64,000 nt of DNA. Source: Anaerolineae bacterium (GTDB lineage Bacteria; Chloroflexota; Anaerolineae; Aggregatilineales; Ch27). Position numbers and translations under genes: made by a program. This document shows, piece by piece, positions 16,649 to 44,134 of this stretch; within the stretch, counting starts at the first letter, position 1; each line of letters opens with the position of its first letter. A model generated the notes under the pieces. It saw nothing but the letters and a program-made list of their open reading frames with translations. It had not been told where the DNA came from and did not search any database. The DNA lies in the NCBI GenBank assembly GCA_013178165.1, contig JABLXG010000003.1, positions 39,711 to 103,710 on the forward strand, in the 5' to 3' direction.

Positions 16649-16661
16649 CGCTCAGATTGCC

Positions 16662-19918: not shown

Positions 19919-19929
19919 TGCTCCCCCGA

Positions 19930-22617
19930 TCAGGCGTCGCTGTGTGCCAGGTGCTTTAGCAGAGCGAGCAGCAGCCAGCGCCCGGCCAGATGTGCCCGCA
20001 GGCCGACTGGCTGGTCGCCCAGCCCGCCCTGAAAGCGCAGGGTGGTCGCCGCCAGCCGTCCTGCGCCCAGCCGCATCTCCAGCAGGTAATCCGTCACATC
20101 AAACTGGCGGGCGTCCAGGCGGCGCAGCGGCGTGCGGACTTCTGCCGCGTCGGGCAGGACTTCGGCCAGGCGCGCTGTATCCAGCACCCAATCGGTCGCC
20201 AGACCGTAGAATTGCAGATCCAGCACGCCGTCGTGGGGCATAGCCGCCAGCGCCGGATGATCCCCGATCAGCGCGATCCCCTCGCGCCAGAAGGGGACGG
20301 CCCGCGCTGGCAGGGGACGGTCGCCCTGCTGGATCAGCAGGACGCGCCCACCACCCCGCGCAAAGCTCAGGACGTCGTCCGTCAGGACATCAGTGATCAG
20401 CACGCGCAGACCGGCGTCCGGCGTCTCTACACGCCGGGCAACCTCCAGCAGATCGTCCAGCCCGCCCAGAGCGCCATTCGGATCGAGCACGCCCAGTCCC
20501 GCCGGCCACGCGCTGACAACCGGGAAGATCCACAGTGGCCAGCTATTGCGTATCGCTGGCCGGCCTTCCGGCGTGAATGACGCCTGCAGGCGCAGCGTCG
20601 CAGCGCGCTCGGACGGCGGCGCGGCAAAAACCGCTCGCCCGATGCTACGGGGACGCCCGCCGGTCAGCGGGCCACTCACCGCCGCCTCCCCGCCACTGAT
20701 ATGCCTCCCTGCCGCGTCGACAACCTCCCAGACCAGCCGGCCGCCCGGCAACGGCGGCCCGGCATGGGCGAGGATGATCTCCAGTCCGGCGGACTGCCCG
20801 GCAGGGAAGCTGTACGGCTCGAAAGGCGCAGGGCGGTCGCCGCCATGCGTCCAGCGCCGCGCCCGTCCCCGCCCCAGCAGCAAAACGCTATCCGCATTGA
20901 ACTGGCGGAAGGCTTCCGGGTCATACTTGCTGCGGCCCAGATCATCGAACATCGAGGAGGAGGCCAACGGCGTGTCACGGATGCTGGTGACCACGTAGCC
21001 GCCCATGCCCGCTCGCGCCCGCACCTTCTCCAGGATCGTCTTGCGCACGACAAACGACTGCCGCCGCGACAGGCGCATCAGCGCCGCGTCGTCCAGCTCC
21101 AGATCAAGTCGTTTCATGCGTTCTTGCTGGGCCGGGTAGCCAACAAATGTCTTGGGATGTAGGGGATTCCATTCGGTGAACCACCAGGGCAATTCCCCGC
21201 CGAACGCCTGCGCGATCTCGCCCAGGTCGCGGTAGTCGTCGGCGTCGCAGAATTCGCCAAAGATCCAGGGGCGCGGGGGCCGCCAATCCCGGCTGAAGTG
21301 ATCAACCAGCGGCTCAAAGTAGTGCAGGTCGCAGTAGAAGTGATAGTCGTTGAAATCGGCAAAGTCAAAGGCCAGCCCACCGTAAGCCTCGCCGGAGCCG
21401 CTGTTGTCGCAGACGAGCACGCCCCCGGTGGCACCGCGCACAATCCCATCCAGCCGCCCCAGCAGTTCGGCGTCAACGCTATGCCCCAGTTCGCAACCCA
21501 GGCTGTACAGGATCACCGATGGATGGTGGTGCACTGCGTCGAGAATCTCAGCGTATTCGCGGGGGGCCTGCTCCCGTAGGCGGGGCGTCACTTCCGGCAG
21601 CCACATCGGCAGTTCCAGCCACAGGAACATGCCCAGTTCGTCCGCCAGGTCAAAATACAGGCGCGATGGGACGAACAGGCATAGCTTGATCAGGTTGTAG
21701 CCCAGGGCGCGGACGCGGGCGAACTCAGCGCGGATGGCCGCCTCTTCCGGAGCGGGGCACAGCACTTCCGGGTACCAGCCCCAGTTGAGCACCCCGCGCA
21801 GGCAGATCGGCTGCCCGTTGAAGAGCAGCTGCTCGCCCTGTCGTGTCAAGGCCCGGAAGCCAACGCGCCGTTCGGCAGCAGCGAGAGTCATCCCCTGCCC
21901 ATCCTCCAGCCGGAGGGCCACCGTGTAGCGCGCCGGATTTGCCGGTTCCCAGCGCACCGGATCCGGCACAACCACGCTGGCGCTCAGCCGCCCTTCCACC
22001 GGCGAACCAGACCACACCGCGACTACCCGCCCGTCAGGATGGGTGACCTGGACGCTGGCCCGCAGACCGGCCTCTATGTCCGCGCCTGTGACGGCGCCTG
22101 TGACCCGGATGCGCCCGCTCTCCACCTCGGCCAGCACCCGCAGGTCGCTCAGCGCCGGGCCGGGGAAAGCCACCAGCCGCGCCGATCCCCACACCCCACC
22201 GAACATCATGACGACATCCGGCAGGAAGCCGGCCAGCGATTCCCGCAGTGGAAAGCGCTCACCCTGCTTGTAGACGATCAGCCGGATCGTGTTGGCCGCG
22301 CCGAAGCGCAGCGCAGCGGTCACGTCAAGGGCAAACGGCGCCCACGAGCCGCTATGCCTCCCGACCGGGGTGCCGTTGATCGTCACCTCGATATCGTAAC
22401 TGACCGCCTCAAACTGAAGCTGCACCTGCCGCCCGGCCCACGCTGCTGGAACGACGATCTCCCGCTCGTAAATTGCCGGGCCATCAACCCGCCGGGGGTA
22501 GCCCTGCGCCTCCCAGCAGCCGGGTACCCGGATCGTGCCCTGTTGCCCGGCCAGGCTAAAGTGCCACTCGCCATCCAGCGGCAAGGTCTCGGCCAGCGTA
22601 TTATGCCACACGCTCAT
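19930..22617 (-). CDS. GH2-family glycosidase (beta-galactosidase/beta-mannosidase-like)
   Basis: 895 aa. A sugar-binding-domain pattern (FEAVSYDIEVTINGTPVGRHSGSWAPFALDVT) is followed by a TIM-barrel region. Confidence 0.75.
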   Translation of the reverse strand: MSVWHNTLAETLPLDGEWHFSLAGQQGTIRVPGCWEAQGYPRRVDGPAIYEREIVVPAAWAGRQVQLQFEAVSYDIEVTINGTPVGRHSGSWAPFALDVTAALRFGAANTIRLIVYKQGERFPLRESLAGFLPDVVMMFGGVWGSARLVAFPGPALSDLRVLAEVESGRIRVTGAVTGADIEAGLRASVQVTHPDGRVVAVWSGSPVEGRLSASVVVPDPVRWEPANPARYTVALRLEDGQGMTLAAAERRVGFRALTRQGEQLLFNGQPICLRGVLNWGWYPEVLCPAPEEAAIRAEFARVRALGYNLIKLCLFVPSRLYFDLADELGMFLWLELPMWLPEVTPRLREQAPREYAEILDAVHHHPSVILYSLGCELGHSVDAELLGRLDGIVRGATGGVLVCDNSGSGEAYGGLAFDFADFNDYHFYCDLHYFEPLVDHFSRDWRPPRPWIFGEFCDADDYRDLGEIAQAFGGELPWWFTEWNPLHPKTFVGYPAQQERMKRLDLELDDAALMRLSRRQSFVVRKTILEKVRARAGMGGYVVTSIRDTPLASSSMFDDLGRSKYDPEAFRQFNADSVLLLGRGRARRWTHGGDRPAPFEPYSFPAGQSAGLEIILAHAGPPLPGGRLVWEVVDAAGRHISGGEAAVSGPLTGGRPRSIGRAVFAAPPSERAATLRLQASFTPEGRPAIRNSWPLWIFPVVSAWPAGLGVLDPNGALGGLDDLLEVARRVETPDAGLRVLITDVLTDDVLSFARGGGRVLLIQQGDRPLPARAVPFWREGIALIGDHPALAAMPHDGVLDLQFYGLATDWVLDTARLAEVLPDAAEVRTPLRRLDARQFDVTDYLLEMRLGAGRLAATTLRFQGGLGDQPVGLRAHLAGRWLLLALLKHLAHSDA

Positions 22618-22665
22618 CGCGCCACATCTCCCTCATGCAGTCTCCGGCGTACTCGGGGCGCCGGG

Positions 22666-24261
22666 CTAGCTTCCCGCCGCGGCCTGGGCGATCACCGCTT
22701 CGATTTCCGGCTGCGCCGCTTCCAGCGTGCCGTCGACAAACGTCAGCGTCGGGATGTACGTCTCCGTCTGCGGCAGGCGGACGTACGGGCTGCAACCGGC
22801 TTCATGCACGCCGGTGCTGTTACGCGACGGATCGCCGTCGCAGATGTGGCCGATCAGCCGGGCGTAGCGCCCGACCCACTCCGGCACCTGCCGCCAGGTA
22901 GCCGTCTGCTGGAACACCGGCAGGATGGCCAGCAGACCGTCATACCAGTCTTCCCCGGCCACCAGCAGTTCCGGATGCCCGGCCCGCAGCCGGGCGATGA
23001 GCTGGCGCAGTCCCTCGCGCATATTAAAGTCCGGGTCGTTGACCCAGACCTCAGTGCAATCCAGAAAGACACCGTCAAAGCCAAAACGCTCAACCAGCGT
23101 CCGTATCTGGCGCGTCAATTCGGTCTGCCAGGCGGGCGCGCCAGGATGCAGCCAGGCCTGCCAGCCGGTGTCGTGTGTGCGTTTGAGGTCCCAGTCCGGC
23201 TGGTTGCCCCAGAAGGTGTTACGGGTGGCCGACTTCATGTAGGAAGATGGGCCGAAGGTATGGAAGTTCGGCGCCCAGGCATTGGCGCAGTTGACGCCGA
23301 ACATGGGCATGACATGCACGCCCAGCGCCCGCGCCCCTTCACACAGCCGGGCAAAACCATCCCCACCGCCCAGCAGCGGCTCCGGGCGGTAATCGCCATA
23401 CTGCCAGTAGTAGCGGCCCTCCCAGCCCGGCAGGTAAGCCAGCACATGGCGGCCATCGATCCGTTCGGCCACAAAGCGGATGATGTTCAGGGCCTGGGCG
23501 TAGGTGTTGAAGATGTAGCCTGACCAGTGCATCTGGTGAATCGTCAGGCACAGGCGGATGTCCCGCGCCCAGCGGGGAACATCCCCGCGCTTTTCCCAGG
23601 GTGCCAGCCCCAGTTCGGCTTCGTCAAAGGCCAGCTGCTCCTGCCGGAAGGCGGACACATCGACGTCCCGATCCAGCACCCACAGCGGCACATCGATCTG
23701 GGTGTCGAACCAGCGGGCATCTTCTTCATGCAGGCATTCGACGGTGTACGTGCCCGCCAGTGGCCCAAAGGTTTCGCGGCATACAGCGAACCGCTTGGCG
23801 CGGGCATGGGGATCTTCGTTGCGCGCGCCGATGATCGTCCCATCCGGCAGCAGGCCGAAGAACAGGGGCAGCCGCAACGGGTTGGGATAGGCGTCGATCA
23901 GCCCACCCTCAGGCAGATCGCGGGGGTGATCCAGCATATCCAGCGGGCGCAGAACAGGCAGGTTGCGGATCAGCACTTTGACCGCCCGGATCTTGTGCAG
24001 GGCGGTAGCCCGGATATTCAGCAAAAGCCGATCACCCTCCCCTCGCCTGGCGACCAGTTCCAGCGACCCCGGCGCGTGCTGCTGCTGCCCGGCCCAGCTC
24101 AGCCGGGAGCAAACCAGCCGCCAGCCGTCGTCGGTCGCCTCAAGGGTGGTGTGGGCCGGGTCCAGACCGTAGAGGTTTTCCAGGGTGATCACCTGAAAGG
24201 AAAGCTGCCAGCCTCCCAGTTCAAAAACTGGATCGCGAAGGTCAAAACTGTAGAGATGCAT
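22666..24261 (-). CDS. uncharacterised protein; possible novel TIM-barrel glycosidase
   Basis: 531-aa ORF with coherent amino-acid usage, located inside a glycosidase operon. The C-terminal half has barrel-like strand motifs (FDGVFLDCTEVW, LVAGEDWYDG). No family recognised by eye. Confidence 0.6.
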   Translation of the reverse strand: MHLYSFDLRDPVFELGGWQLSFQVITLENLYGLDPAHTTLEATDDGWRLVCSRLSWAGQQQHAPGSLELVARRGEGDRLLLNIRATALHKIRAVKVLIRNLPVLRPLDMLDHPRDLPEGGLIDAYPNPLRLPLFFGLLPDGTIIGARNEDPHARAKRFAVCRETFGPLAGTYTVECLHEEDARWFDTQIDVPLWVLDRDVDVSAFRQEQLAFDEAELGLAPWEKRGDVPRWARDIRLCLTIHQMHWSGYIFNTYAQALNIIRFVAERIDGRHVLAYLPGWEGRYYWQYGDYRPEPLLGGGDGFARLCEGARALGVHVMPMFGVNCANAWAPNFHTFGPSSYMKSATRNTFWGNQPDWDLKRTHDTGWQAWLHPGAPAWQTELTRQIRTLVERFGFDGVFLDCTEVWVNDPDFNMREGLRQLIARLRAGHPELLVAGEDWYDGLLAILPVFQQTATWRQVPEWVGRYARLIGHICDGDPSRNSTGVHEAGCSPYVRLPQTETYIPTLTFVDGTLEAAQPEIEAVIAQAAAGS

Positions 24262-24353
24262 GGTTTACGCGCCTTTAGGGGGCCGACCTGGCCAGCCCGG
24301 TCGGCAGGGCCGGGTAGCGCCTGGTGGTCAACCCGGCATGAATAGACAAACCC

Positions 24354-24411: not shown

Positions 24412-24492
24412 GACAGCGCTCCCCTTGATTACTGCCTGCAACGGATGGACAATCAGGCCGATCCAGACAACTTAGACTGCCCGGTATCCATT

Positions 24493-25179
24493 TTAGCCGC
24501 GGTAATACTTCTCGTAGTCGTTGACCAGCAGGTACAGCGGTGGCTCGTCTTCTTCAATCGCCGGGAAGCGACCGATCGGCTCGTAGAAGCGATTGTCAGT
24601 GGCGTCATCGTTGACGGAAGACACCTCGCCCACCAGCACGCGGTTACCTTCCGCCCAGAACTGGTGGTAGCAATACGGCTCCAGCGTGATACTCTCGCCC
24701 GGCTCAAGGGCCACCGTGCCGCCCGCTTTGACGGTGCGCGGTACAGCGTCGATCATCACTGTCACATCGTCGTCTCTCAGCGCCCCCTCAGGCGTGCTGT
24801 TATAGAGCTGGATCAGCAGTCTGCCGCCGCCGCGGTTGATGATGTCCTCCGTCTTGAGCCAGTGGAAGTGCAGCGGCGTGATTTGCTGCTCGCCGACAAT
24901 CAGCAACTTCTCCGCATACACCTTGCCCTTACCAGTCTTGAGATTCTCCGGGGAGCCGTTGCGGATAGTGAACAGGAACAACCCCTTGTGGGTGTAGTCG
25001 CCCAATCCAAAGTCAGTGATGTCCCAGCCCAACCGCCGGGCCACAATCTCGCGGGCTTCAGGCCCTTTGCGCCGCCAGTCATCTGGCGACCAGTAGGCGA
25101 ACGGCGGTAGATAAAAGCCATGCGCCTTGATGAAGGCGTCGGCTTCACGTATGATGGTGTTGATTTCAGACCGCTTCAT
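24493..25179 (-). CDS. D-lyxose / D-mannose ketol-isomerase (cupin)
   Basis: MKRSEINTII...LPPFAYWSP...YAEKLLIV...TPLHFHW.KTEDIINRGGG...VGEVSSVNDD..DN.F closely resembles characterised D-lyxose isomerases (E. coli O157 Z5688 type), from memory. ATG 25179 follows GGAGGAGAAG. Confidence 0.9.
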   Translation of the reverse strand: MKRSEINTIIREADAFIKAHGFYLPPFAYWSPDDWRRKGPEAREIVARRLGWDITDFGLGDYTHKGLFLFTIRNGSPENLKTGKGKVYAEKLLIVGEQQITPLHFHWLKTEDIINRGGGRLLIQLYNSTPEGALRDDDVTVMIDAVPRTVKAGGTVALEPGESITLEPYCYHQFWAEGNRVLVGEVSSVNDDATDNRFYEPIGRFPAIEEDEPPLYLLVNDYEKYYRG

Positions 25180-25240
25180 GCGTGCTTCTCCTCCTGTTGA
25201 GCGCGGGTACCGCCCGCTGCACCGATGATTGGAAAGCCTG

Positions 25241-26380
25241 ATGGCAGACAGCACAAACACTTTCTGGAAAGCGGACTGGGACCGCATCCGCGAGCATTAT
25301 ATGGCCTGGTGGCGGCGCGAGGGCCTGGTGCTGCATGTTCTGGCCCCCCGCGATTCCAGCCCGGAGCGCGATACGCGCAATCCCCAGGCCCCATTTTACT
25401 ACCTGATGGGCGGCCTGGACCCCACCGCCATCTACCCTGATGATGCCGCCCTGCGCGACGCCTGGCTCAACGCCGAACGCCGGGCGCGCCTGGCCGAGCG
25501 TTACCTGCGTGGCATCTACTTCGGCGGGGATGCCTTCCCCTTCTTCGATACCAACATCGGCCCGGGCAACCTGGCAACCTTCCTCGGCGCGGAGCCATCC
25601 TTCGCCCCGGACACCGTCTGGTACGCGCCGTGCATCACCGATCCTGACCGCCATCCCCCCCTGCGCTTCGACCCGCAGAACCCCTGGTTCCTGCGCCAGA
25701 AAGCTGTAGCGGAGGCCGGGGTCGCTATCAGCGCCGGGCGATTTCTGGTCAGCATGCCCGACCTGATCGAGAATCTGGACACCCTGGCCTCCCTGCGGGA
25801 GACGCAGCGCCTGATGCTGGATCTGGTCGAGCGCCCGGCGTTTGTCAAAGAGCGGCTGGCGGAGATCAACCAGGCCTACTTCCAGGCGTTCCAGGCGCTG
25901 TATGAGATCGTCCAGACGCCCTGGGGCGGCAACGTGTTCTCCGCCTTCAGCATCTGGGGGCCAGGACGCACGGCCAAAGTGCAATGTGACGCCTGTGTCA
26001 TGATCTCCCCGGAGATGTTCGCCGAGTTCGTCGTCCCCTACCTGGTCGAGCAATGCGCCTGGCTGGACTACAGCATGTACCATCTGGACGGCACGCAGGC
26101 TTTCCGCCACCTGGATGCGCTGCTGAGCATCGAGGCGCTGGACGCCATCGAATGGACGCCCCAGGTCAGCGCGCCGCAGGGCGGCTCCCCGGAATGGTAC
26201 GGCCTGTACCGGCGCATCCTGGACGCCGGCAAGAGCATCCAGGCGATCAACGTCCAGCCGGATGAAGTCCTGCCCCTGCTGGACGCCATTGGCACGCGCG
26301 GCGTCTTTCTGATGGTCAACGCCGCCAGCGAGGCCGAGGCCCGCGCCCTGGTTGAAGCGGTGGAGGCCCGCCGATCCTGA
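25241..26380 (+). CDS. URO-D-fold protein, paralogue 2 (divergent)
   Basis: PDLIENLDTLASLRETQRLMLDLVERPAFVKERL and QCDACVMISPEMFAEFVVPYL...YHLDG follow the URO-D family block order. ATG 25241 (GGAAAG SD) is preferred over TTG 25229. Confidence 0.6.
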   Translation: MADSTNTFWKADWDRIREHYMAWWRREGLVLHVLAPRDSSPERDTRNPQAPFYYLMGGLDPTAIYPDDAALRDAWLNAERRARLAERYLRGIYFGGDAFPFFDTNIGPGNLATFLGAEPSFAPDTVWYAPCITDPDRHPPLRFDPQNPWFLRQKAVAEAGVAISAGRFLVSMPDLIENLDTLASLRETQRLMLDLVERPAFVKERLAEINQAYFQAFQALYEIVQTPWGGNVFSAFSIWGPGRTAKVQCDACVMISPEMFAEFVVPYLVEQCAWLDYSMYHLDGTQAFRHLDALLSIEALDAIEWTPQVSAPQGGSPEWYGLYRRILDAGKSIQAINVQPDEVLPLLDAIGTRGVFLMVNAASEAEARALVEAVEARRS

Positions 26381-26403
26381 CGGAACCGGCGGGCAATCAC
26401 GAT

Positions 26404-27618
26404 CTAATACTCGCCCGTGGCCATTCGCTTCTGCATCTTGACCGGCGTGTTCTCTAGCAACCATGCTTCAGTGCGCGCTTTGATCGCCTCCGGCGTCTCG
26501 TTGTAGCCATAAGTTTGCAGCAGGACGGGCGTCCACTTTTGCCCCCAGCGGATGTGGAAATTCTCATCGCTCCAGTCGTAGCTGACGGCAGCGGCGGAGA
26601 CTTCGTCGGCGATCTTCTCCCAGTGTTCGCGGTTGGCCACCTTCTCCGGCATGCCATTCGGCTCGATCACAGTGGTCAGCAGCGCATACTGGTCGACCGC
26701 CGGCAGGGTCATCATGACGTTGTAAATCTGGACAACCTGCGGCACCTCCGAAACCTGCAGGCCAAGCTGCTGAACACGTAGCTGACCGAGCTGGCTGTGG
26801 CGCACCTCATCCCACTGGTGACGGGCCACGTTGTAGTGGAATTCCCAGGGCATTTCCGGCGTCATCCACAGCACGGAAGCCAGTGTCTCGGCGGCAGTCA
26901 TCTCATTAAGGTAGTGCTTGAAGCGCCACAGGCGGTGCGCTTCCGGCTCGGCCTGGCGGTCCGGCTCGATATCCGTATCGGGGTCGAAGATCGGCCAGCC
27001 GGGCATGCGCTGACATTCCTTCCAGGGCAGCAGCAGGGCATGCCCTGCCGGGCGAGCAGGCGGCTGCTGGCGCGGTTCCGCGCCGGTCACGCCGCCGTCA
27101 GCGGCCAGCAAACCGGCGATATACGCCTGCCACGCTTCCCAGCCGGGGTAACGCGCCGCGACTTCCGGGAAGAATGCCTCCGCCCAGGCGACCTGCTTCT
27201 CCGTCGTCTCGATCAACTTCTCGCGGATAATCTTGACCGTCGGATTGTCGAACGCTTCCCAGGTCAGGCCGGTATGGGCGCGGTAGGCGGCCAGCAATGC
27301 CTTCTTGATCACCAGGTAGGCGGTGGCGATCAGGTCGGCGGTATGCGCGGCGCAGTCCAGTTCGCGGGCCAGGGTATGCAACCCATCGCTGATGCCGCGC
27401 TCGAAGTTGTGGGCGCGTAACTCGCGCAGGCGAGCGTGCAATGCTTCGGCAGCGTCGGCGCTCTCCCAGATGTGCAGGCCGATCTGGTTCTTGGCTTCCC
27501 ATTCCGGCACGCCGGCCAGCCAGCCGGCCAGTGTCCGCGTCAGGCTGCGTTCCAGAAAGGCATAACGCTTCAACACCAGGACATTCTGCTCAATGGTCAG
27601 GCGGGATTGGGTCTCCAT
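26404..27618 (-). CDS. ferritin-like di-iron-carboxylate candidate, unknown function
   Basis: 404 aa from ATG 27618 (GGAGG SD). Two ExxH motifs (WDEVRH, SDENFH) and upstream Glu (NEMTAAE) lie in a helical C-terminal half. The N-terminal half is also helical. Confidence 0.6.
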   Translation of the reverse strand: METQSRLTIEQNVLVLKRYAFLERSLTRTLAGWLAGVPEWEAKNQIGLHIWESADAAEALHARLRELRAHNFERGISDGLHTLARELDCAAHTADLIATAYLVIKKALLAAYRAHTGLTWEAFDNPTVKIIREKLIETTEKQVAWAEAFFPEVAARYPGWEAWQAYIAGLLAADGGVTGAEPRQQPPARPAGHALLLPWKECQRMPGWPIFDPDTDIEPDRQAEPEAHRLWRFKHYLNEMTAAETLASVLWMTPEMPWEFHYNVARHQWDEVRHSQLGQLRVQQLGLQVSEVPQVVQIYNVMMTLPAVDQYALLTTVIEPNGMPEKVANREHWEKIADEVSAAAVSYDWSDENFHIRWGQKWTPVLLQTYGYNETPEAIKARTEAWLLENTPVKMQKRMATGEY

Positions 27619-27655
27619 GAACAATTTCCTCCAATAACCTTCAATCTTCACCATG

Positions 27656-27665
27656 TGTATAGACA
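27656..27665. promoter_or_regulatory. operator candidate TGTATAGACA
   Basis: One mismatch from the palindrome TGTCTAGACA. It overlaps the -35 of the predicted plus-strand promoter and lies in the leader of the minus-strand gene. Confidence 0.5.
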
Positions 27666-27688
27666 AACTAGCGGGATGTGATTATACT
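27660..27688 (+). promoter_or_regulatory. candidate promoter TAGACA-17-TATACT for the URO-D3/GH38/ABC operon
   Basis: Both hexamers match consensus 5/6, with a 17-nt spacer. Eye-predicted. Confidence 0.4.
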
Positions 27689-27689
27689 G

Positions 27690-27718
27690 ATTGTAGCTTA
27701 TGCGGCTTGCCGGATCAA
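27690..27718 (-). promoter_or_regulatory. candidate promoter TTGATC-17-TACAAT for the ferritin-like gene
   Basis: On the minus strand the -35 is the complement of 27713..27718 and the -10 is the complement of 27690..27695. A perfect TATAAT also exists as the complement of 27681..27686. Confidence 0.35.
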
Positions 27719-27805
27719 TCACGCCTTTCACCCGCTCTTCCGGCCTCCATAACGGCCTGGGAATCCGCGTTAACGCGCCAGGCGCGCCGCCCCCCATCGC
27801 CGCCA

Positions 27806-27815
27806 TGTCTAGACA
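27806..27815. promoter_or_regulatory. operator candidate, perfect palindrome TGTCTAGACA
   Basis: Read directly. It ends 43 nt upstream of the URO-D3 start codon, inside the predicted leader. Confidence 0.5.
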
Positions 27816-27857
27816 ATCCGGCAGCCGCCTGTTGACCGCACCACCCTGGAGTGACTG

Positions 27858-29012
27858 ATGGCCGAAGTGATTGAGATTGGCGTGTCGGTGGAAGAGCTGG
27901 CTGCCCGCAAAGAGCGGGTCACCAAAACCAAGCGTTTTGAGGAGCCGGATCGTGTGCCGGTCATCCCAGCCATCGCCCACCGCTTCATGATTCCCAAAGT
28001 GGGCGTCCGCTTCCGTGACTATTACCGCGACCCCGAAACCATGCTGCGCACCCAGATTCTGGGCCAGAAGTGGTTGATGGAAAATGTGCGCACCGACGCC
28101 TACAGCATCACCGGGGCGTGGGTCGGTGCCTGGACGGATTTCCAGAACACCTTCGAGGCCGGTAGCCTGGGCTGCGAGATCATCTTCCCCGACGACGACA
28201 TCCCCTGGGTCGGGCCGGGCTGGGTCAAGACGGAAGAAGACCTGGCCCGCCTGGAAGCGATGGACTTCATTCACAGCGGCATCAACGCCCGCCAGATCGC
28301 CTACCGCCGGGCGATGATGGCCGTCGCCGAGCGTTACCCCGTCCGCTTCCTCGGCGGGGAGGTGTTCTACCCCGGCGCCAACCCTGCCCTGACCCACACA
28401 TCTGATGGGCCGTTTGGCATAGCCGGCGATCTGATGGGCCAGACCGAGTTGTTCACCGCCTGTTATGAGCGCCCTGATTTTGTACGCGAACTGCTGCGCA
28501 TCATCACCGACAAATTGATCGAATACCTGGACTTCTGCTGGGAAGAAGAACAGCTCCCGACCCGCGACTTTGCCTGGACGGATGACCTGGCGGTTAACCT
28601 CTCCGCGGAGATGTACCGCGACCTGGTCCTGCCGGAGGAAAAGCGGCTGCGCTTCCACTTTGACGGCTGGCTTTCCCTGCACATGTGTGGCAAGACCGAC
28701 CACCTGCTGGAGATCTTCCGCGACGATCTGGCGATCCATGAGTTGCAGGGCTTCGGCTACCAGGTCAACCTGGATCGCATTGCCGAAGTGATGGGCGGGC
28801 GTGTCGTCCTGATCGGCAACATCGACCCGATGCTGATCCACAGCGGCACGCCGGAACAGGTTCGGAAAGCAACCCGTATCGCCATTGAGAAGCTGGCCCC
28901 CTACCGGGGCTATATCGTCCAGGATGGCAACAACATCCCGCCCGGTTCGCCGCTGGAAAACATCAACGCCATGACCGAAGCCGCCGAACTTTACGGGCGC
29001 TATCACGATTAA
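27858..29012 (+). CDS. URO-D-fold protein, paralogue 3
   Basis: EELAARKERVTKTKRFEEPDRVPVIP N-terminus and the LHMCG...IGNIDP pattern are typical of the URO-D superfamily. GGAG SD. Confidence 0.75.
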   Translation: MAEVIEIGVSVEELAARKERVTKTKRFEEPDRVPVIPAIAHRFMIPKVGVRFRDYYRDPETMLRTQILGQKWLMENVRTDAYSITGAWVGAWTDFQNTFEAGSLGCEIIFPDDDIPWVGPGWVKTEEDLARLEAMDFIHSGINARQIAYRRAMMAVAERYPVRFLGGEVFYPGANPALTHTSDGPFGIAGDLMGQTELFTACYERPDFVRELLRIITDKLIEYLDFCWEEEQLPTRDFAWTDDLAVNLSAEMYRDLVLPEEKRLRFHFDGWLSLHMCGKTDHLLEIFRDDLAIHELQGFGYQVNLDRIAEVMGGRVVLIGNIDPMLIHSGTPEQVRKATRIAIEKLAPYRGYIVQDGNNIPPGSPLENINAMTEAAELYGRYHD

Positions 29013-29062: not shown

Positions 29063-31846
29063 ATGCCCATGAGCAGCACGCGTCGCACGGCAACCATTGT
29101 GCCTCACACGCACTGGGATCGCGCCTGGTACGTCACCTTCCAGGAATTCCGCGCCCGCCTTGTCCGCCTGATCGACCGGCTGATTGACCTGCTGGAGCAG
29201 AACCCGGACTACCGCTTCTTTATGCTGGATGGCCAGACTTCCATCCTGGAAGACTACCTGGAAGTGCGCCCGCAGCGCGCCGATATCCTGCAGCGCCTGG
29301 CGCGGGAGGGACGGATCAGTGTGGGGCCGTGGTACGTGCTCCCGGACGAATACCTGGTCAGTCCGGAGGCACTCATCCGCAACCTGATGATCGGTCACCG
29401 TATGGGCGCGACTTATGGCGGGGTGATGAAGGTCGGTTATGTCCCGGATGGTTTCGGGCACATCGCCCAGCTGCCCCAGGTCTTCCGCGGCTTTGGCATC
29501 GATTCGGCGATCTTCTGGCGTGGCGTCGGCGCGGAAGCCGACCACATCGGCGCCGAATTTGAGTGGGTTGCCCGGGATGGCTCCCGTGTGCTGGGCATCT
29601 GGATGCCCTGGGGCTACCACAACCTGTCCAATGTCGGTTATCCCATCCGCTGGGGCGATACCTCGCAGATGGCCTTCGACTGGGAGATGGCTCTCCAGCA
29701 GGTCGGGCAGGCGCTGGAGAAGCTGGAAGGGCTGTGCCACACCCCCGCCCGCCTGCTGATGAACGGCATCGATCACGCCGAAGCCGAGCCGCGCATCCCG
29801 GAACTGGTCGCCCGCGCCCGCGCCGCCTTCCCAGATGTTGACTTCCGCATGGGCACGCTGAGCGACTATCTGCGCGATGTTCGCGATTCCGGCGTCCCGC
29901 TGCCCGAATTCAGCGGCGAATTCCGCTGGGGGCGCTACGCCGAAATCCTGCAGGGCGTCTATTCCACCCGCATCACCCTCAAGCAACGCAACCACCGCGT
30001 GGAAACGCTGCTGGAGCGTTACGCCGAGCCGCTCACCGCCTTCGCCCGCCTGGCTGGGGCCAACCCACCCGCTGGCACTCAGGATCTACTGTGGACGGCC
30101 TGGCGCTGGCTGCTCAAGAATCACCCCCACGATGACATCTACGGCAGCGGGATCGACCAGGTACACGACGAAATGCTCTACCGCTTTGACCAGGCCGAGC
30201 AGATCGGGAATATCCTGGTGCGGGACAGTCTGCGCCTGCTGGCCCGCCACGCCGATTTCTCTGCCCAGACGGGCACGCCGGTGCTGGTCTACAATCCGCT
30301 CAACTGGACACGGACGGAAGTCGCCGAGGGAACGATCGACTTCGACTTTGACGACCCGACAGCGGAGCGCTTCACCCTGTACGATGCTCAGGGCCAGCCG
30401 ATCCCCTGCCAGGTCCTCAGCCGCGAGGATGCCGTCTGGCTGGAAACGCTCAAGCCCAACCGCAAGCGGCGGGTGCATGTCGCCTTCCGGGTGGAAGCGC
30501 CGCCCTGCGGCTATACCACCGTCTACGCCCGTCCCGGCGGCCAGACGACTCCCCTGCCCGGCACCCTCTGGCGCGTCGATCCTGATGGCGCGGAGAATGC
30601 TTACCTGGCTTTCCGCATCGCTGCCGATGGCAGCCTGACCATCCGCGACCGGGCTACCGGGATGGTTTACGCCGGTCTGCACCGCTTCTATGATGTGGAC
30701 GATGCCGGGGATGAGTACAGCTATTGCCCGTGCCCCAACAGCGAGGTCTACAGCTCCGCCGGGCAACCCGCCCGGATCGAGCTGGTGCTGGACAGCCCTC
30801 TGCTGGCCCGCTTCCGCGTCACCCAGACGCTGCGCCTCCCCGCCGCGCTGAGCGCCGATCGGCAACGCCGCTCGGAGACGCTGGTTGACCTGCCGATTGT
30901 CTCCCTGTTGACCTTCTACCGCGACCAGCCAGGCCTGTACATTGAGACGCGCGTCACCAACACCGCCCGCGACCACAAACTGACGGTCACCTTCCCCACA
31001 CCGCTGCGCCCAGAACACGCTTATGTCGATGCCGCCTTCCAGGTCAGCGCCCGCGAGATCGCCCTACCGCCTTCCGAAGGCTGGCTGGAAGACCCCACCC
31101 CGCTTATGCATCAGCGGGCTTTCACCGACCTGAGCGACAGCGGGCGCGGGCTGGCTGTGCTCAACCGCGGCTTGCCTTCGGTGGAAGTCGAGCGTACCGC
31201 CGAAGGGACGCAGATCGCGCTGACCCTGCTGCGGGCTGTTGGCTGGCTTTCCCGCGACGATCTCAGCACCCGGCGCGTCGCTGCCGGGCCGCTACTGCCA
31301 ACGCCCGGCGCACAGTGCCCCGGCAACCATATCTTTGAGTACGCCATCCTACCCCACAGCGGCGACTGGACGGCTGTAGCCCGTCTTGCCGCCGCTTACA
31401 CAGCTCCCCTGCACATCGCCCGCGCCGACACGCATGAGGGCATGGAACTCAAGGAGATGCCCTTCATTGGCGTGGACCTGGACTGGTATAACCAGGTGGT
31501 CAAGCCGATCCCCTGGCCGCGCGACGGCCAGAACCCGGATACGCTCAGTTTCCTGGCCCTGGAACCCGCGCCGCTGATTGTGAGCGCGATCCGGGCCAGC
31601 GCCGACGGCGAGGGGCTGGTCGTGCGCTTCTACCACCCCGGCGACTCCCCGCTAACCGCCCGGCTGATCAGCCAGCGCCCGCTGGCAACCGTTTACCGCC
31701 TGAACCTCAACGAGGAGCGCCAGGCCAAAGTCATTCCGGCGGAGGGGCCGGATGCCTGGCAGCTAACCGATAACAGCCATACTGTGCTGATCCCGGTGGT
31801 GGGCGGCCAGATCGTCACGTGCGAACTGCGCCCTGCCCGGGGTTAG
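29063..31846 (+). CDS. GH38 alpha-mannosidase (mannosylglycerate-hydrolase-like)
   Basis: IVPHTHWDRAWY, FMLDGQT and VGPWYVLPDE are GH38 N-domain signatures. 927 aa. Confidence 0.9.
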   Translation: MPMSSTRRTATIVPHTHWDRAWYVTFQEFRARLVRLIDRLIDLLEQNPDYRFFMLDGQTSILEDYLEVRPQRADILQRLAREGRISVGPWYVLPDEYLVSPEALIRNLMIGHRMGATYGGVMKVGYVPDGFGHIAQLPQVFRGFGIDSAIFWRGVGAEADHIGAEFEWVARDGSRVLGIWMPWGYHNLSNVGYPIRWGDTSQMAFDWEMALQQVGQALEKLEGLCHTPARLLMNGIDHAEAEPRIPELVARARAAFPDVDFRMGTLSDYLRDVRDSGVPLPEFSGEFRWGRYAEILQGVYSTRITLKQRNHRVETLLERYAEPLTAFARLAGANPPAGTQDLLWTAWRWLLKNHPHDDIYGSGIDQVHDEMLYRFDQAEQIGNILVRDSLRLLARHADFSAQTGTPVLVYNPLNWTRTEVAEGTIDFDFDDPTAERFTLYDAQGQPIPCQVLSREDAVWLETLKPNRKRRVHVAFRVEAPPCGYTTVYARPGGQTTPLPGTLWRVDPDGAENAYLAFRIAADGSLTIRDRATGMVYAGLHRFYDVDDAGDEYSYCPCPNSEVYSSAGQPARIELVLDSPLLARFRVTQTLRLPAALSADRQRRSETLVDLPIVSLLTFYRDQPGLYIETRVTNTARDHKLTVTFPTPLRPEHAYVDAAFQVSAREIALPPSEGWLEDPTPLMHQRAFTDLSDSGRGLAVLNRGLPSVEVERTAEGTQIALTLLRAVGWLSRDDLSTRRVAAGPLLPTPGAQCPGNHIFEYAILPHSGDWTAVARLAAAYTAPLHIARADTHEGMELKEMPFIGVDLDWYNQVVKPIPWPRDGQNPDTLSFLALEPAPLIVSAIRASADGEGLVVRFYHPGDSPLTARLISQRPLATVYRLNLNEERQAKVIPAEGPDAWQLTDNSHTVLIPVVGGQIVTCELRPARG

Positions 31847-31881: not shown

Positions 31882-31936
31882 CTGAGCTTCGCCCGGAATG
31901 AACGCTTTTTGCCCGTATAAAAGGAGGAGCTTCAAG

Positions 31937-33199
31937 ATGTCTGTCAAAGTTTCTCGTCGTGAATTTCTTAAGACCAGCGGTCTGGCCGCTGCCGCCGTCG
32001 CCACCTCCAAGTTCCCCATGCCGGGGATCATCCATCGTCGCCAGATGAACACCGTCGTGCTGAAGATTCAGTCCTTTGCCCATGACGCGATCAAGGCCGT
32101 GCTGCCCGACTTTGAGGCGGCCACCGGCCTGACCGTGCAGCTGGAGCCAGGGCTTTCCTCCGGCCCGGAGCACATGCAGGAAGTCAGCACCGCCTACGCC
32201 GCCGGCGATAGCCCCTGGGACGTCGTCAGCGACCCGGATGAGGGCACCGTTGCCTTCGCCCGCGCGGGCTGGTTGATGCCGCTCGATGACATCATCCCGC
32301 AGGAAACTCTGGACGACTTCCCCCAGGGCATGCGGGACGCCTTCCCCATCTGGCATGGCTTTGAAGGTGCGCTGTACCGCGTGCCACACGAGTTTGCCGT
32401 GGGGTATTTCTTCTATCGCAAGGACCTGCTCGGCGAGCCGCCCAAGACCTGGGAAGAAGTGGCCGAGATCGGTATGCAGGTCACCGATGCCGCCAATGGC
32501 GTCTGGGCCACCACCGACGCGATCATCCGCGGCGGCCTGACCTGGGTCTATGTGGCCTACCTGGCCAGCCAGACGGGCGGGAACGTCTTTGAGATGGATG
32601 CTGGCACGGCGCACGCGGCGCACTTCCTGTATGACATGCTCAATGTCTACAAGATCATGCCGCCCGACGCGCTCAACATGAACTACGACCAGCAGAACCA
32701 GCTCTACATGAGCGACAAGGTCATGTTCATGCGCCAGTGGCCGTTCTTCCAGAGCGTGGCCGAGGGCAACACCGAATGGTTCAGCCCGGACAAGGTCGCC
32801 ATCGCCCTGCCGCCCGCTGGCCCCGCCGGGACGGGCAGCTGGTGGGGTGGCTGGGGCTTCAGCGTCCCGGCCCTGGCCCCTAACCCCGATGGCGCCAAGG
32901 AGCTGATCAAGTACATCACCTCCAATGAGGTCGCCCCCAAGCTGGCCCAGGGCCAGAGCTGGTTCATCATGCCGCGTACTTCCATCCTCAACGCGATGGC
33001 CGGCACCGGCAATCCGATCGTGGACGCCATGGGCCTCTACGCCGAGAACAATGTGATCAAGCCACGGCCGTTCCACCCACGCGCTGCTGAGGCGCAGTAC
33101 GCCGTTGACGACGCGATGCTGCAGTACCTGACCAAGCAGGCCACCCTGCAGGAAGCGCTCGCCTTCGGCAAGCAGCTGCTGGCCGACCTGAGCGCCTAG
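31937..33199 (+). CDS. CUT1-family sugar ABC transporter substrate-binding protein with Tat-type signal
   Basis: MSVKVSRREFLKTSGLAAAAVA twin-arginine signal. Family-1 solute-binding pattern. AAGGAGGAG SD before ATG 31937. Confidence 0.88.
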   Translation: MSVKVSRREFLKTSGLAAAAVATSKFPMPGIIHRRQMNTVVLKIQSFAHDAIKAVLPDFEAATGLTVQLEPGLSSGPEHMQEVSTAYAAGDSPWDVVSDPDEGTVAFARAGWLMPLDDIIPQETLDDFPQGMRDAFPIWHGFEGALYRVPHEFAVGYFFYRKDLLGEPPKTWEEVAEIGMQVTDAANGVWATTDAIIRGGLTWVYVAYLASQTGGNVFEMDAGTAHAAHFLYDMLNVYKIMPPDALNMNYDQQNQLYMSDKVMFMRQWPFFQSVAEGNTEWFSPDKVAIALPPAGPAGTGSWWGGWGFSVPALAPNPDGAKELIKYITSNEVAPKLAQGQSWFIMPRTSILNAMAGTGNPIVDAMGLYAENNVIKPRPFHPRAAEAQYAVDDAMLQYLTKQATLQEALAFGKQLLADLSA

Positions 33200-33226
33200 G
33201 GTAGGTTCCATCGTCTGTTGACCGTT

Positions 33227-33259
33227 CCCCCCTCCCGGTTCAGTCCGCCGGGAGGGGGG
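33227..33259 (+). terminator. intercistronic 12-bp GC stem-loop after the SBP gene (attenuator or mRNA stabiliser)
   Basis: CCCCCCTCCCGG (33227..33238) pairs with CCGGGAGGGGGG (33248..33259) around a 9-nt loop. No T-run follows. Confidence 0.5.
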
Positions 33260-33298
33260 AGGCTTGCACTATCTTGTCCAGGCTGGAAGGAGGTTGGC

Positions 33299-34225
33299 GT
33301 GGTCGCCAACGCAGAAAACTCGCGGGCTGTTACGCGCGTCAAGACATCGCGGCTGAGCCTTAACCAGCGGCGCTACGTGGCAGCCGCACTGTTGCTGGCG
33401 CCGGTGATCCTCCTGCGCCTGTTTACCACCCTCTACCCGTTCGTCCAGACCATCTTCCTGAGCTTTGAGAAGTACAATCCGGCCTTTCCACCGCGCCAGT
33501 ATGTCGGACTGGGCAACTTCGAGAAGATCGCTTCGGATATCGTGGTGCGGAGCAGCGTCGAATTCACGCTGATCTTTGTCTTTGGCTCAACCCTGTTCCA
33601 GCTGATCTTCGGGATCATGGTTGCCTCGCTGCTCAACAGCCGCTTCCGGCTGCGCAATCTGGCCCGCACGATCAACCTGATCCCCTGGGCCATCCCGATG
33701 GTGGTGGCGGCAGTGGGCTGGCGCTGGCTGTTCGACGGCACTTACGGCTGGATCACCGACCTGCTGCACCGGCTGGGAATCGACTACAGCTGGCTGATCG
33801 ATCCGGTTGGCGCGCGCATCGCCATCCTGATTGTCAGCGTATGGAAGAGCACACCCTTCGTGGCCATCTCCATCCTGGCCGGGCTACAGGGCGTGTCGGA
33901 GGAACTCTATGAGGCCGCCCGTGTGGACGGGGCCAACGCCTGGCAATCGTTCTGGAGCATCACTCTGCCCCTGATCATGCCGCTGACGGTCACCATCGGC
34001 ATGTTCATGCTGGTCTGGCAGCTGGCCGTTTTTGACCTGCCCTACGCCATGACCTCCGGCGGGCCGGGCTTTGCCACCAGCGTGCTGGCCTACCAGATCC
34101 AGCAGCAGGTCGCCACACTGAATTACGGCTATGCTTCAGCACTCAGCGTGGTCATGTTCCTCATCGTAGGACTTATCGGCATCATCGGCGTGGTCGCGTT
34201 CCGGCGCGTCCAGGTCGCGCTGTAA
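33299..34225 (+). CDS. sugar ABC transporter permease (MalF/UgpA-like)
   Basis: Multiple TM helices and an EAA loop ([22 protein letters not shown]). I chose GTG 33299 after GGAAGGAGG. The upstream part of the ORF (33218..) contains the hairpin. Confidence 0.85.
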   Translation: MVANAENSRAVTRVKTSRLSLNQRRYVAAALLLAPVILLRLFTTLYPFVQTIFLSFEKYNPAFPPRQYVGLGNFEKIASDIVVRSSVEFTLIFVFGSTLFQLIFGIMVASLLNSRFRLRNLARTINLIPWAIPMVVAAVGWRWLFDGTYGWITDLLHRLGIDYSWLIDPVGARIAILIVSVWKSTPFVAISILAGLQGVSEELYEAARVDGANAWQSFWSITLPLIMPLTVTIGMFMLVWQLAVFDLPYAMTSGGPGFATSVLAYQIQQQVATLNYGYASALSVVMFLIVGLIGIIGVVAFRRVQVAL

Positions 34226-34237
34226 AGGGGAAATAGC

Positions 34238-35086
34238 ATGGTTGGCCAGTTTTTGCGGCGTCACGGCGGGCGCATTGTCACCTACATCGGCTTCCTGATC
34301 TTCGCCTTCATCATGCTGTTCCCGTTCTACTTCATCGTGGTATCGTCCTTCACGCCACGCTACGAGATTTTCCAGACACCGCCGCGCTACTTCCCACAGA
34401 ACCTGACGCTGGAAAATTACCCGAACATGATCGCGACGATCCCATTCTGGCAGTACTACGCCAACTCCCTGATCTTTGCGATAGGCAGCTCGCTGCTCTC
34501 CACGGTGGTCAGCGCGATGGCGGGGTATGGATTGGCCCGGCTAAAGTTCCCCGGCAGTAATCTGGTCTTCCTGGGGCTGGTGCTGTCCATTGCCCTGCCA
34601 CAGGTCGCCCTGCTGGTACCCATCCGCGAAATGTACAACGTGCTGGGGCTGAACAATACCCATCTGGGGTTGATCATCCTGATGTCCAGCCTGGTCACGC
34701 CGTTCACGGTGTGGATCATGGTCTCCTTCGTCAACCAGATTCCGGTCGAGATCGAGGAAGCGGCCCTGATCGACGGGGCAACGCTGTGGCAGACGATCAT
34801 CCGCATTGTCCTGCCGACCATGCGCCCGGCACTGGCCACGATGCTGATCATCAATTTCATCAATGCCTGGAACGAGCTACTCTACCCGATGATCTTCGCC
34901 ACGCGCAACGACACCAAGACGCTCAGCGTTGGCCTGATCTCGCTGGGGCGCGAGGCCATCGGCACCTCCCGCCCCTGGGACCGGATGAGCGCGATGAGCG
35001 TGTTGATGATCATCCCGGTGGTGATCCTGATCATCTTCGGGCAGCGGGCCATCGTCTCCGGCCTGACGCGCGGCGCAGTCAAATAG
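34238..35086 (+). CDS. sugar ABC transporter permease (MalG/UgpE-like)
   Basis: EAA loop IEEAALIDGATLWQTIIRIVLP. 282 aa with 6 predicted TM segments. Confidence 0.88.
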   Translation: MVGQFLRRHGGRIVTYIGFLIFAFIMLFPFYFIVVSSFTPRYEIFQTPPRYFPQNLTLENYPNMIATIPFWQYYANSLIFAIGSSLLSTVVSAMAGYGLARLKFPGSNLVFLGLVLSIALPQVALLVPIREMYNVLGLNNTHLGLIILMSSLVTPFTVWIMVSFVNQIPVEIEEAALIDGATLWQTIIRIVLPTMRPALATMLIINFINAWNELLYPMIFATRNDTKTLSVGLISLGREAIGTSRPWDRMSAMSVLMIIPVVILIIFGQRAIVSGLTRGAVK

Positions 35087-38769: not shown

Positions 38770-38779
38770 TGTCTATACA
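38770..38779. promoter_or_regulatory. operator candidate TGTCTATACA at the regulator's predicted transcription start
   Basis: One mismatch from TGTCTAGACA. The extended ATACAAAT matches 7/8 of the B. subtilis AraR-box half-site GTACAAAT (from memory). Confidence 0.5.
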
Positions 38780-42782: not shown

Positions 42783-42855
42783 TTCTCCTCCTTATCACTT
42801 CCCGCGGCAGCAGTCCCGCGCCGGGATAGCCAGCGCCACCGATCTGCGGGCCAGT

Positions 42856-44087: not shown

Positions 44088-44134
44088 GCGATCACCGGCC
44101 AGGCCGGAATACCCAGCCTGCGGACAACACCGAT

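Follow-up and report, generated by a model that had tools for sequence, protein, structure and literature searches.

A two-bundle ferritin-like protein and three URO-D-fold paralogues in a conserved, putative mannoside utilisation regulon of Aggregatilineales

A 64-kb stretch of contig JABLXG010000003.1 from an Anaerolineae bacterium, referred to here as the window, is dense in carbohydrate genes and has a G+C content of about 64%. Among these genes are three divergent members of the uroporphyrinogen decarboxylase (URO-D) fold, UROD1, UROD2 and UROD3, and a gene for a 404-residue, two-bundle ferritin-like protein, DUF455a. All four ORFs are confirmed at their annotated positions. We read this set as central to a regulon for the use of glycans (alpha-mannosides) that is conserved in the Aggregatilineales, combines a di-iron oxygenase with corrinoid-type methyltransferases and would probably serve to remove methyl substituents. 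This reading is tentative, and we give it slightly less than an even chance. It is built on folds, family placement, conservation of ligands, gene linkage, a shared operator and purifying selection, which we describe in turn before weighing the function they might point to.

DUF455a (26404-27618, minus strand; N-terminus METQSRL) appears to be cytoplasmic and ferritin-like, and its putative metal centre is of the di-iron carboxylate type. It passes the Pfam threshold for DUF455 (PF04305) marginally, with 35.0 bits against a cut-off of 34.3 and over residues 255-387 only, while its AlphaFold model (predicted local distance difference test, pLDDT, 89) consists of two helical bundles. The initial annotation had noticed the motifs WDEVRH and SDENFH together with an upstream glutamate, and had proposed structure prediction as a check for a helical bundle. 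The model bears this out: the pattern E/ExxH/E/ExxH lies on four long helices (225-252, 258-284, 307-335 and 339-369, bearing E239, E271/H274, E319 and E352/H355, respectively) and is invariant in distant relatives. The proposed ligands in the C-terminal bundle are thus E239, E271-x-x-H274, E319 and E352-x-x-H355. Their spacing of 32 residues between E239 and E271 and 33 between E319 and E352 is typical for ferritin-like di-iron proteins. An alignment of 50 relatives at 22-36% identity leaves just ten columns without variation: R63, E239, D270, E271, R273, H274, E319, D351, E352 and H355. The putative metal site can therefore be taken to define the two-bundle DUF455 family; Arg63, in the N-terminal bundle, is likewise invariant throughout. 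More than 120 orthologue clusters at 69-97% identity were found, and all orthologues carry a precomputed PF04305 label. A whole-library HMMER search with the DUF455a family retrieved 758 clusters (at 50% identity) with E <= 1e-3, 308 of them at E <= 1e-10, and the relatives listed in that search are mostly 400-470 residues long.

No solved relative of DUF455a emerged by sequence, the matches being noise at E >= 0.09, and literature searches on DUF455 returned only unrelated papers and no family function. Weak and partial fold matches in Foldseek comprise bacterioferritin, YciF, TenA, PaaC-like, Dps-like and T4MO bundles. There is also a faint echo between the two bundles, with 'PEWEAKN..GLHIWES' in residues 24-78 facing 'MPWEFHYN..RHQWDE' in residues 240-295. 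It would fit an ancient internal duplication with subsequent loss of ligands, but hhalign gives no significant similarity between the N- and C-terminal bundles (E 0.24).

Among GTDB species genomes, 64 related loci were found, nearly all from Aggregatilineales/Anaerolineae, and the window proteins were mapped onto them. A near-full-length DUF455a is found in 59 of them; adjacency was counted over 57 loci, and 50 could be assessed for the partners described next. In several loci (L001, L002, L003 and L006) the DUF455a orthologue is followed by two co-directional genes encoding a second DUF455 protein of 470 residues, DUF455b, and a 90-residue ferredoxin. This pair lies directly downstream of DUF455a in 24 of the 50 assessable loci and elsewhere in the locus in a further three. 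DUF455b has the same architecture as DUF455a (hhalign E 1.5e-33), carries its own invariant E/DExxH/E/DExxH set and scores 43.2 bits against Pfam DUF455. The ferredoxin is of the plant-type [2Fe-2S] kind, with C36, C41, C44 and C78 in a C-x4-C-x2-C...C arrangement. Similar ferredoxin modules are those of MmoC, GbcB, BenC and PaaE, and YfaE is similar as well. We infer that DUF455a, with DUF455b where it occurs, is a ferredoxin-reduced, O2-activating di-iron oxygenase acting on an imported sugar. Another recurrent gene, which the window lacks, encodes a 263-residue xylose-isomerase-like TIM-barrel protein directly after the ferredoxin gene (L053:3726-4517, plus strand, and 14 other loci, or about 13 by another count).

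The URO-D paralogues form the second half of the system. The initial annotation had assigned all three to this fold from the raw sequence, and the assignments stand. UROD1 (16662-17825, minus strand) and UROD3 (27858-29012, plus strand) match the Pfam URO-D family (PF01208) with E-values of 1.2e-24 and 5.5e-35, the latter over the full length, and with 87.5 and 121.4 bits against a cut-off of 23.9. UROD2 (25241-26380, plus strand) matches nothing in Pfam, NCBIfam or a PDB profile search, and its fold came to light only through structure prediction. The AlphaFold model has a pLDDT of 93.7, and the start of the protein is supported by orthologues of 379 residues. In Foldseek, the best and only strong structural matches of this model are UROD and MtaA (TM 0.58-0.65), namely UROD 3cyv with E 2.4e-8 and TM 0.61-0.65 and MtaA 4ay7/4ay8 with E 2e-7 to 4e-7. 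An hhalign comparison of the UROD2 and UROD3 families gives E 1.3e-5. The three are distant from one another: UROD1 and UROD3 share 26% identity over 126 residues, and the pairwise match of UROD2 to UROD3 is marginal. The UROD2 family comprises 1611 matches, none with a Pfam domain, and UROD3 is very strongly conserved, at >=77% identity over 120 clusters.

Are these proteins simply HemE? Judged by their sequences, UROD1-3 are not uroporphyrinogen decarboxylases. Orthology to hemE, which had been named beforehand as the outcome that would count against a special role, is rejected by the TIGR01464 profile, which scores 18.9 bits for UROD1 and 33.3 bits for UROD3 (19-33 bits in round figures) against a cut-off of 302.95 (303), with no match for UROD2. 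Catalytic residues were also checked, as suggested at the outset. The HemE positions are changed: aligned to human UROD with HMMER, UROD3 has a histidine in place of Tyr164 and an asparagine in place of His339. UROD1 has an aspartate at the latter position. In the N-terminal part, with Arg37/41 and Asp86 of human UROD, the alignment is not reliable. The zinc site of MtaA, taken as His-x-Cys ... Cys after MtaA and MetE, is partly retained. UROD1 has H276-x-C278, E297 and D364-H365, with its YHTCG placed on the LHICG of MtaA 4ay7, and UROD3 has H275-x-C277. The His-x-Cys is invariant in the orthologue sets of both, followed by a conserved glutamate about 20 residues later. UROD2 would have H281-x-D283 at this place, as positioned by the secondary structure of the model rather than by residue alignment. 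Zinc is not universal in the UroD superfamily (PMC13222342). The best NCBIfam matches of UROD1 and UROD3 are of the MtaA/CmuA type, and PDB sequence matches of UROD3 include UROD (5e-8), CdmB (2e-6) and MtaA (1e-5). We place UROD1-3 in the MtaA/MtvA/MtvB-type branch of corrinoid-dependent methyltransferases, with a putative corrinoid dependence in this organism.

Within the window, two of the three paralogues are built into glycosidase operons, as had been proposed for all of them; UROD2 is a solitary gene, convergent with the DUF455a gene and divergent from the gene for a D-lyxose/D-mannose isomerase (24493-25179, minus strand; Pfam Lyx_isomer 1.2e-103, NCBIfam 268.8 bits against a cut-off of 350). 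UROD3 leads an operon, as recognised initially, in which a cytosolic bacterial-type glycoside hydrolase family 38 (GH38) alpha-mannosidase (29063-31846, plus strand) and an ATP-binding cassette (ABC) sugar importer follow at gaps of 50, 51, 18 and 12 bp. The alpha-mannosidase shows the N-terminal, middle and C-terminal GH38 domains of Pfam and matches 3lvt/5kbp (4.7e-108) and SpGH38 2wyh (4.9e-102) in the PDB. The importer spans 31898-35086 (plus strand; Pfam SBP_bac_1 and BPD_transp_1) and consists of a solute-binding protein (SBP) with a twin-arginine translocation signal (31898-33199; SBP_bac_1) and two permeases (33218-34225 and 34238-35086; BPD_transp_1). The second operon (14318-24261, minus strand), assigned by Pfam, comprises a GHL10-like gene (22666-24261), GH2 (19930-22617), GH35/GlmA-like (17822-19918), UROD1 and GH65 (14318-16648). 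The coupling of UROD1 noted from the sequence is tight: a 4-bp overlap joins its start to the end of the preceding GH35/GlmA-like gene, and 13 bp separate it from GH65. A GFO/IDH/MocA oxidoreductase gene, assigned by Pfam (13203-14321, plus strand), is a recurrent neighbour of UROD1. Downstream of the importer lie a GH31 glycosidase (35184-37592, minus strand; Pfam), which recurs in the module, and a regulator with a GntR-type helix-turn-helix (HTH) and a LacI-type sugar-binding domain (37620-38720, minus strand; Pfam GntR and Peripla_BP_1/3/4). Purifying selection acts on UROD2, UROD3 and DUF455a, the three genes checked, with ratios of nonsynonymous to synonymous substitution (dN/dS) of 0.03-0.19; for DUF455a the value is 0.03-0.11, despite the absence of DUF455b and ferredoxin from the window.

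Several antisense open reading frames (ORFs) accompany these genes, namely 25166-26464 (minus strand, 432 residues) over UROD2, 27648-29006 (minus strand, 452 residues) over UROD3 and 24445-25110 (plus strand, 221 residues) over the isomerase gene. All are artefacts of high G+C. As genes they were rejected for their wrong codon-position GC pattern and their nonsense-like translations rich in Ala, Gly and Arg, and they could mislead gene callers.

The neighbourhood is kept in relatives, the closest loci being Chloroflexota/Aggregatilineales metagenome-assembled genomes (MAGs); UROD3 is 100% identical to HPY64_02350 of an Anaerolineae MAG. In the 59 Aggregatilineales loci, DUF455a occurs by GH38 and the ABC importer, with orthologues of UROD3 and UROD1 and a shared operator. 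GH38 is present in 40 of them, a UROD3 orthologue in 30 (at 65-89% identity), a UROD1 orthologue in 20 and a GntR/LacI-type regulator in 35. The second ABC permease stands directly upstream of DUF455a and in the same direction in 30 of 57 loci, so that DUF455a is often the fourth gene, after the permeases; GH38 is divergent from DUF455a in nine, and a UROD3 orthologue is adjacent in eight. In L058-L061 a co-directional run of SBP, two permeases, UROD3 and DUF455a is found, to which GH38 is added in L060 and L061. Operons of GH38, UROD1 and SBP occur in L030, L031, L034 and L035, and UROD1 is often paired with UROD3 at a short distance. That the linkage persists though gene order varies makes inherited synteny alone a less likely cause. 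The module also recurrently includes GH31 (19 of 59 loci, at 37-43% identity to the window protein, and 92% in L008), GH2, GH172, the GHL10-like protein, the xylose-isomerase-like protein, a beta-helix protein and the GFO oxidoreductase, whose orthologues (65-72% identity) lie beside the UROD3-UROD1 pair in eight loci. The beta-helix protein, a right-handed one of 442 residues (PF13229/PF05048; L037:7332-8660, minus strand, and 14 other loci), is not encoded in the window. That the UROD2 family belongs to glycosidase operons in general was considered and rejected: in most of about 50 metagenomic loci its neighbours are unrelated or housekeeping genes, and the position of UROD2 here is lineage-specific.

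Sugar loci also harbour four distant two-bundle DUF455 relatives, at 29-37% identity and on unrelated contigs. Two of them (L152/L153, 8001-9257) lie one by a sulfatase and the other in a run of GntR/LacI regulator, RhaM, sulfatase and major facilitator superfamily transporter. A third (L154, 3761-4996) stands between an SBP with a heparinase II/III-like protein and an HpcH aldolase, and the fourth (L155, 4090-5298) by a GntR/LacI regulator, a Bmp nucleoside ABC system and adenosine deaminase. The two-bundle family may be of general use as an accessory enzyme in the breakdown of glycans or nucleosides. A few contigs or proteins with orthologues at 70-82% identity are assigned to MAGs of Pleurocapsa, Kiloniellales, Pirellulales or Calditrichia (L017, L053, L071, P0310 and P0312); most likely they do not reflect transfer but are Anaerolineae contigs placed in the wrong bin.

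The promoters of this module are marked by a palindrome, TGTnTAnACA. Two copies, TGTATAGACA (27656-27665) and TGTCTAGACA (27806-27815), lie in the 239-bp divergent region between DUF455a and UROD3 (27619-27857), which contains back-to-back sigma-70-like promoters. A third, TGTCTATACA (38770-38779), lies in the promoter region of the regulator, between its gene and that for a PfkB kinase, and an operator-like site with one mismatch, TGAATAGACA (24339-24348), precedes the GHL10-like/GH2/GH35/UROD1/GH65 operon. Exact palindromes occur in the regulator/GHL10-like intergenic regions of L010, L011, L016, L018 and L047. Across 1.02 Mb of related loci 63 copies were counted, as opposed to 5.4 +/- 2.2 in shuffled sequence, all of them within promoter regions, namely GH38/SBP, GH38/DUF455a, UROD3/DUF455a, regulator/GHL10-like, regulator/GH65 or upstream of UROD3. 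No palindrome precedes UROD2. The protein that binds TGTnTAnACA is most likely the GntR-HTH/LacI-sensor repressor, which probably controls its own gene and the divergon of DUF455a and UROD3-GH38-ABC, and probably also the operon that carries UROD1.

Where might a corrinoid partner come from? A 211-residue corrinoid protein (PF02607 and PF02310; for example L049:12547-13182, plus strand) follows the regulator in nine related loci. In three of these the ORF downstream of it was scanned, which revealed an MtaB homologue in L023 (3-1214, minus strand) and L044 (588-1982, minus strand), with Pfam E-values of 1e-145 to 1e-156 and 398 bits in NCBIfam, and the reductive activator RACo in L026 (1-1740, minus strand). 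Seven loci have a fourth URO-D gene beside the UROD3-UROD1 pair, and in five of the seven the corrinoid protein is present too. Relatives of UROD2 are found in clusters of the same kind: L136 combines a corrinoid protein, a URO-D gene, UROD2, S-methyl_trans, DUF1638 and RACo, and L109 a corrinoid protein, UROD2 and a URO-D gene. The presence of such partners in related genomes favours demethylation or oxidative removal over decarboxylation. As MtaB is a methanol enzyme, its presence could mean that the C1 compound handled in practice is methanol. Literature searches found no MtaB, corrinoid or RACo systems in sugar loci of Anaerolineae.

Many natural glycans resist glycoside hydrolases owing to methyl ethers and other small substituents. 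The most economical common job for the two enzyme kinds could be the removal of a methyl or similar small O-linked group that blocks mannoside catabolism. An imported mannoside would carry such a substituent, most simply O-methyl. With O2 available, DUF455a would hydroxylate it and release formaldehyde, acting with DUF455b and the ferredoxin where these occur; when O2 is absent, the URO-D proteins would move the methyl group via a corrinoid protein where one is available. The sugar would then pass to GH38, the mannose isomerase and the PfkB kinase, which would complete its catabolism. The GFO oxidoreductase and TIM-barrel neighbours would also fit a route by oxidation and beta-elimination that releases methanol. 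Candidate substrates are methyl mannosides and the glycans with 3-O-methylmannose that actinomycetes or cyanobacteria make. A sugar-tailoring or unmasking role, as the initial annotation had suggested, is the best-supported reading given the exclusion of hemE, the retained neighbourhood and the helical bundles, from which the activity and substrate can only be inferred. Its strongest form, in which one mannoside regulon holds two unrecognised carbohydrate O-demethylation systems, a DUF455a/DUF455b/Fer2 oxygenase and a corrinoid URO-D set, that unmask methylated mannosides such as 3-O-methylmannose glycans for GH38 under oxic and anoxic conditions, we regard as doubtful.

A number of observations weigh against removal of a methyl group by these enzymes. 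For the oxygenase, a Foldseek search of the DUF455a model against the PDB gave a best E of 0.14 and none below 0.1, and a search of the 64 kb found neither DUF455b nor a 2Fe-2S ferredoxin. For the methyltransferases, the scores against TIGR01463, NF040654 and NF004889 are 56.7-82.2 bits and thus far below the cut-offs of 235-400, and the distal zinc-ligand cysteine of MtaA is replaced, by D364 in UROD1 and an Asn/Asp-rich 'QDGNN' in UROD3. As was remarked at the outset for heme genes, corrinoid proteins and methyltransferase partners, the window encodes none: Pfam scans and tblastn found no heme-biosynthesis gene, corrinoid protein, MtaB or RACo in it. Under the methyltransferase reading the corrinoid partner of the URO-D proteins must be encoded outside this window, and the missing DUF455b, ferredoxin and corrinoid genes would have to lie elsewhere in the genome or be dispensable. 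The corrinoid genes occur in just nine of 59 loci, in one gene order, and may represent a single sub-clade, so that their adjacency is possibly inherited. MtaB itself points to free methanol rather than to a sugar methyl ether, and no formaldehyde- or tetrahydrofolate-handling genes were found in the related loci. Finally, literature searches on URO-D proteins with glycoside hydrolases, corrinoid demethylation of methylated sugars, MtaB in Anaerolineae and 3-O-methylmannose catabolism returned no such system.

Other explanations have to be considered. DUF455a might be a di-iron oxygenase or oxidase of another sugar reaction, with a separate role for the URO-D proteins; ring C-H hydroxylation or desaturation, cleavage as by myo-inositol oxygenase, and oxidative release of sulfate or of glyceryl or lactyl ethers are examples. 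The distant relatives lie by sulfatases, a heparinase II/III-like lyase, an HpcH aldolase and nucleoside transport, with no obvious methyl ethers, and the xylose-isomerase-like protein after the ferredoxin (about 13 loci) with GFO nearby is typical of keto-sugar chemistry. This explanation, for which no characterised family member can be called upon, leaves the URO-D proteins, and the corrinoid genes of nine genomes, in the same regulon unexplained, and we think it rather unlikely.

It appears improbable that the URO-D paralogues are cofactor-independent TIM-barrel sugar enzymes, such as uronic or keto acid decarboxylases, isomerases or lyases, with corrinoid neighbours by chance. HemE proves that the fold is capable of cofactor-free decarboxylation, and the lack of a corrinoid protein in the 64 kb, its limitation to nine of 59 loci, the missing distal zinc-ligand cysteine and the His-x-Asp of UROD2 in place of His-x-Cys all agree with this idea. 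However, no uronate pathway genes are linked, and the residues with which HemE binds its substrate are changed (His339 to Asn/Asp; Tyr164 to His in UROD3). In addition, the best profile matches are all of the MtaA/CmuA type, His-x-Cys is invariant in UROD1 and UROD3, and relatives of UROD2 stand in unmistakable clusters with corrinoid protein, RACo and S-methyltransferase.

More improbable still is that the accessory enzymes act on a released non-sugar aglycone, for example of methoxylated aromatic glycosides, with the URO-D proteins as aryl O-demethylases and the DUF455 protein as an aromatic hydroxylase. All characterised bacterial UroD-superfamily methyltransferase I (MTI) enzymes use aryl methyl ethers, methanol-type donors or halomethanes (PMC13222342), and ferritin-like di-iron oxygenases often hydroxylate aromatics. 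The partners, though, are a cytosolic GH38, a CUT1-type sugar importer, a mannose isomerase, GH31, GH2 and GH172, the sensor domain of the regulator is a LacI-type sugar sensor, and neither the window nor the set of recurrent neighbours yielded genes for aromatic ring cleavage or phenolic catabolism.

A non-catalytic DUF455a, serving in iron storage, redox stress or regulation and holding its place by synteny inherited within one order, is very unlikely: its best fold matches do include bacterioferritin, YciF and Dps-like bundles and all 59 loci come from one order, but the linkage and operator are kept despite variable order (after the permeases, divergent from GH38, or between UROD3 and GH38), relatives at 29-37% identity on unrelated contigs again lie in sugar operons, the dedicated ferredoxin resembles oxygenase-reductase modules, and a protein of about 400 residues with two bundles is unlike the 24-mer ferritins.

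The proteins can be compared with several known systems. The UroD superfamily comprises the methylcobamide:coenzyme M methyltransferases MtaA/MtbA, methyltransferase II (MTII) enzymes such as MtvA/MtqA/OdmD and the MTI enzymes MtvB/OdmB/VdmB/CdmB. Characterised bacterial demethylases employ two UroD-superfamily methyltransferases and a corrinoid protein (PMC13222342; compare MtvABC). Like these, the paralogues have the TIM-barrel URO-D fold, MtaA/CmuA as best profiles and, in UROD1 and UROD3, His-x-Cys at the MtaA zinc site; like MTI/MTII systems, the loci contain several distinct URO-D genes, with corrinoid protein, MtaB and RACo in related ones. Unlike them, they score 52-82 bits against curated cut-offs of 235-600, have replaced the distal cysteine and lack a corrinoid protein in the window, and they are embedded in and co-regulated with operons for glycosidases and a sugar importer, which is undescribed for that family. 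With HemE they share the common fold, the Pfam match of UROD1 and UROD3 and, for UROD2, UROD structures as top Foldseek hits. They differ from it by their 10-16% identity, the changed catalytic positions and the missing heme-biosynthesis context, both in the window and among recurrent neighbours.

On the oxygenase side the comparators are acyl-ACP desaturases, aldehyde-deformylating oxygenase, MiaE, PaaA/PaaC and the bacterial multicomponent monooxygenases (BMM). The helical-bundle E/(D/E)ExxH/E/(D/E)ExxH set, a DUF455a/DUF455b pair reminiscent of PaaA/PaaC or BMM alpha/beta, and the dedicated ferredoxin of relatives speak for a likeness. Different are the absence of a significant sequence or structure match, the extra N-terminal bundle with Arg63 in DUF455a, the full ligand set kept by both DUF455 paralogues, the sugar-operon context and the absence of a linked reductase gene. 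Pfam DUF455, a family of the ferritin-like clan, is matched by the C-terminal bundle, whereas the proteins have about 400-470 residues in two bundles as compared to the 247 positions of the model. In sum, we would describe the finding as a variant, embedded in operons, of two kinds of enzyme that are known, with a function suggested by context and a regulon that is defined.

A functional parallel may be seen in marine polysaccharide utilisation loci, in which a cytochrome P450 with ferredoxin and ferredoxin reductase demethylates 6-O-methyl-D-galactose (PMC6292453). Literature searches for carbohydrate demethylases found only this marine Bacteroidetes system. There a ferredoxin-dependent oxygenase of a glycan locus removes a methyl ether blocking glycoside hydrolases, and by analogy DUF455a might do the same. 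The differences are a heme-thiolate P450 versus a ferritin-like di-iron protein, another phylum and another glycan, and the likeness is one we draw ourselves.

What would follow from this? Gene order, a shared operator and distant sugar loci tie an uncharacterised ferritin-like family to glycan import and hydrolysis, and the UroD proteins likewise. If true, the proposal would assign a function to DUF455-type proteins, the first for the broad two-bundle family, and would extend corrinoid methyltransferases to carbohydrates, as the first to act on sugar methyl ethers. It would also help to explain the use of decorated glycans by Anaerolineae, which according to the names of MAGs are common in activated sludge, sediments and mats. 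Even with a wrong guess at the substrate, the regulon offers a concrete and testable set of operator, regulator, importer and enzymes.

Beyond the module, the window holds further carbohydrate genes. A complete inositol-catabolism-type set at 2319-9640 (plus strand) encodes aldehyde dehydrogenase/IolA, PfkB/IolC, IolB, IolD, IolE-like and IolG-like proteins. A link of this operon to the DUF455a module, for instance through methyl-inositols, was considered and rejected, as the iol genes are not conserved neighbours. A second sugar cluster at 41130-52559 includes fucose-isomerase-like, transaldolase/FSA, 2-keto-3-deoxy-6-phosphogluconate (KDPG) aldolase, FGGY kinase and aldo-keto reductase genes, a GntR/UTRA regulator and a further CUT1-type ABC importer; at 50586 it contains an operator-like site with one mismatch, GGTATAGACA. 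At 54001-56000 the G+C content falls to 0.577 (from about 0.64), near genes for a YkoP-domain protein and a glycosyltransferase of family 21 (55141-57020), and this stretch may be laterally acquired cell-envelope DNA.

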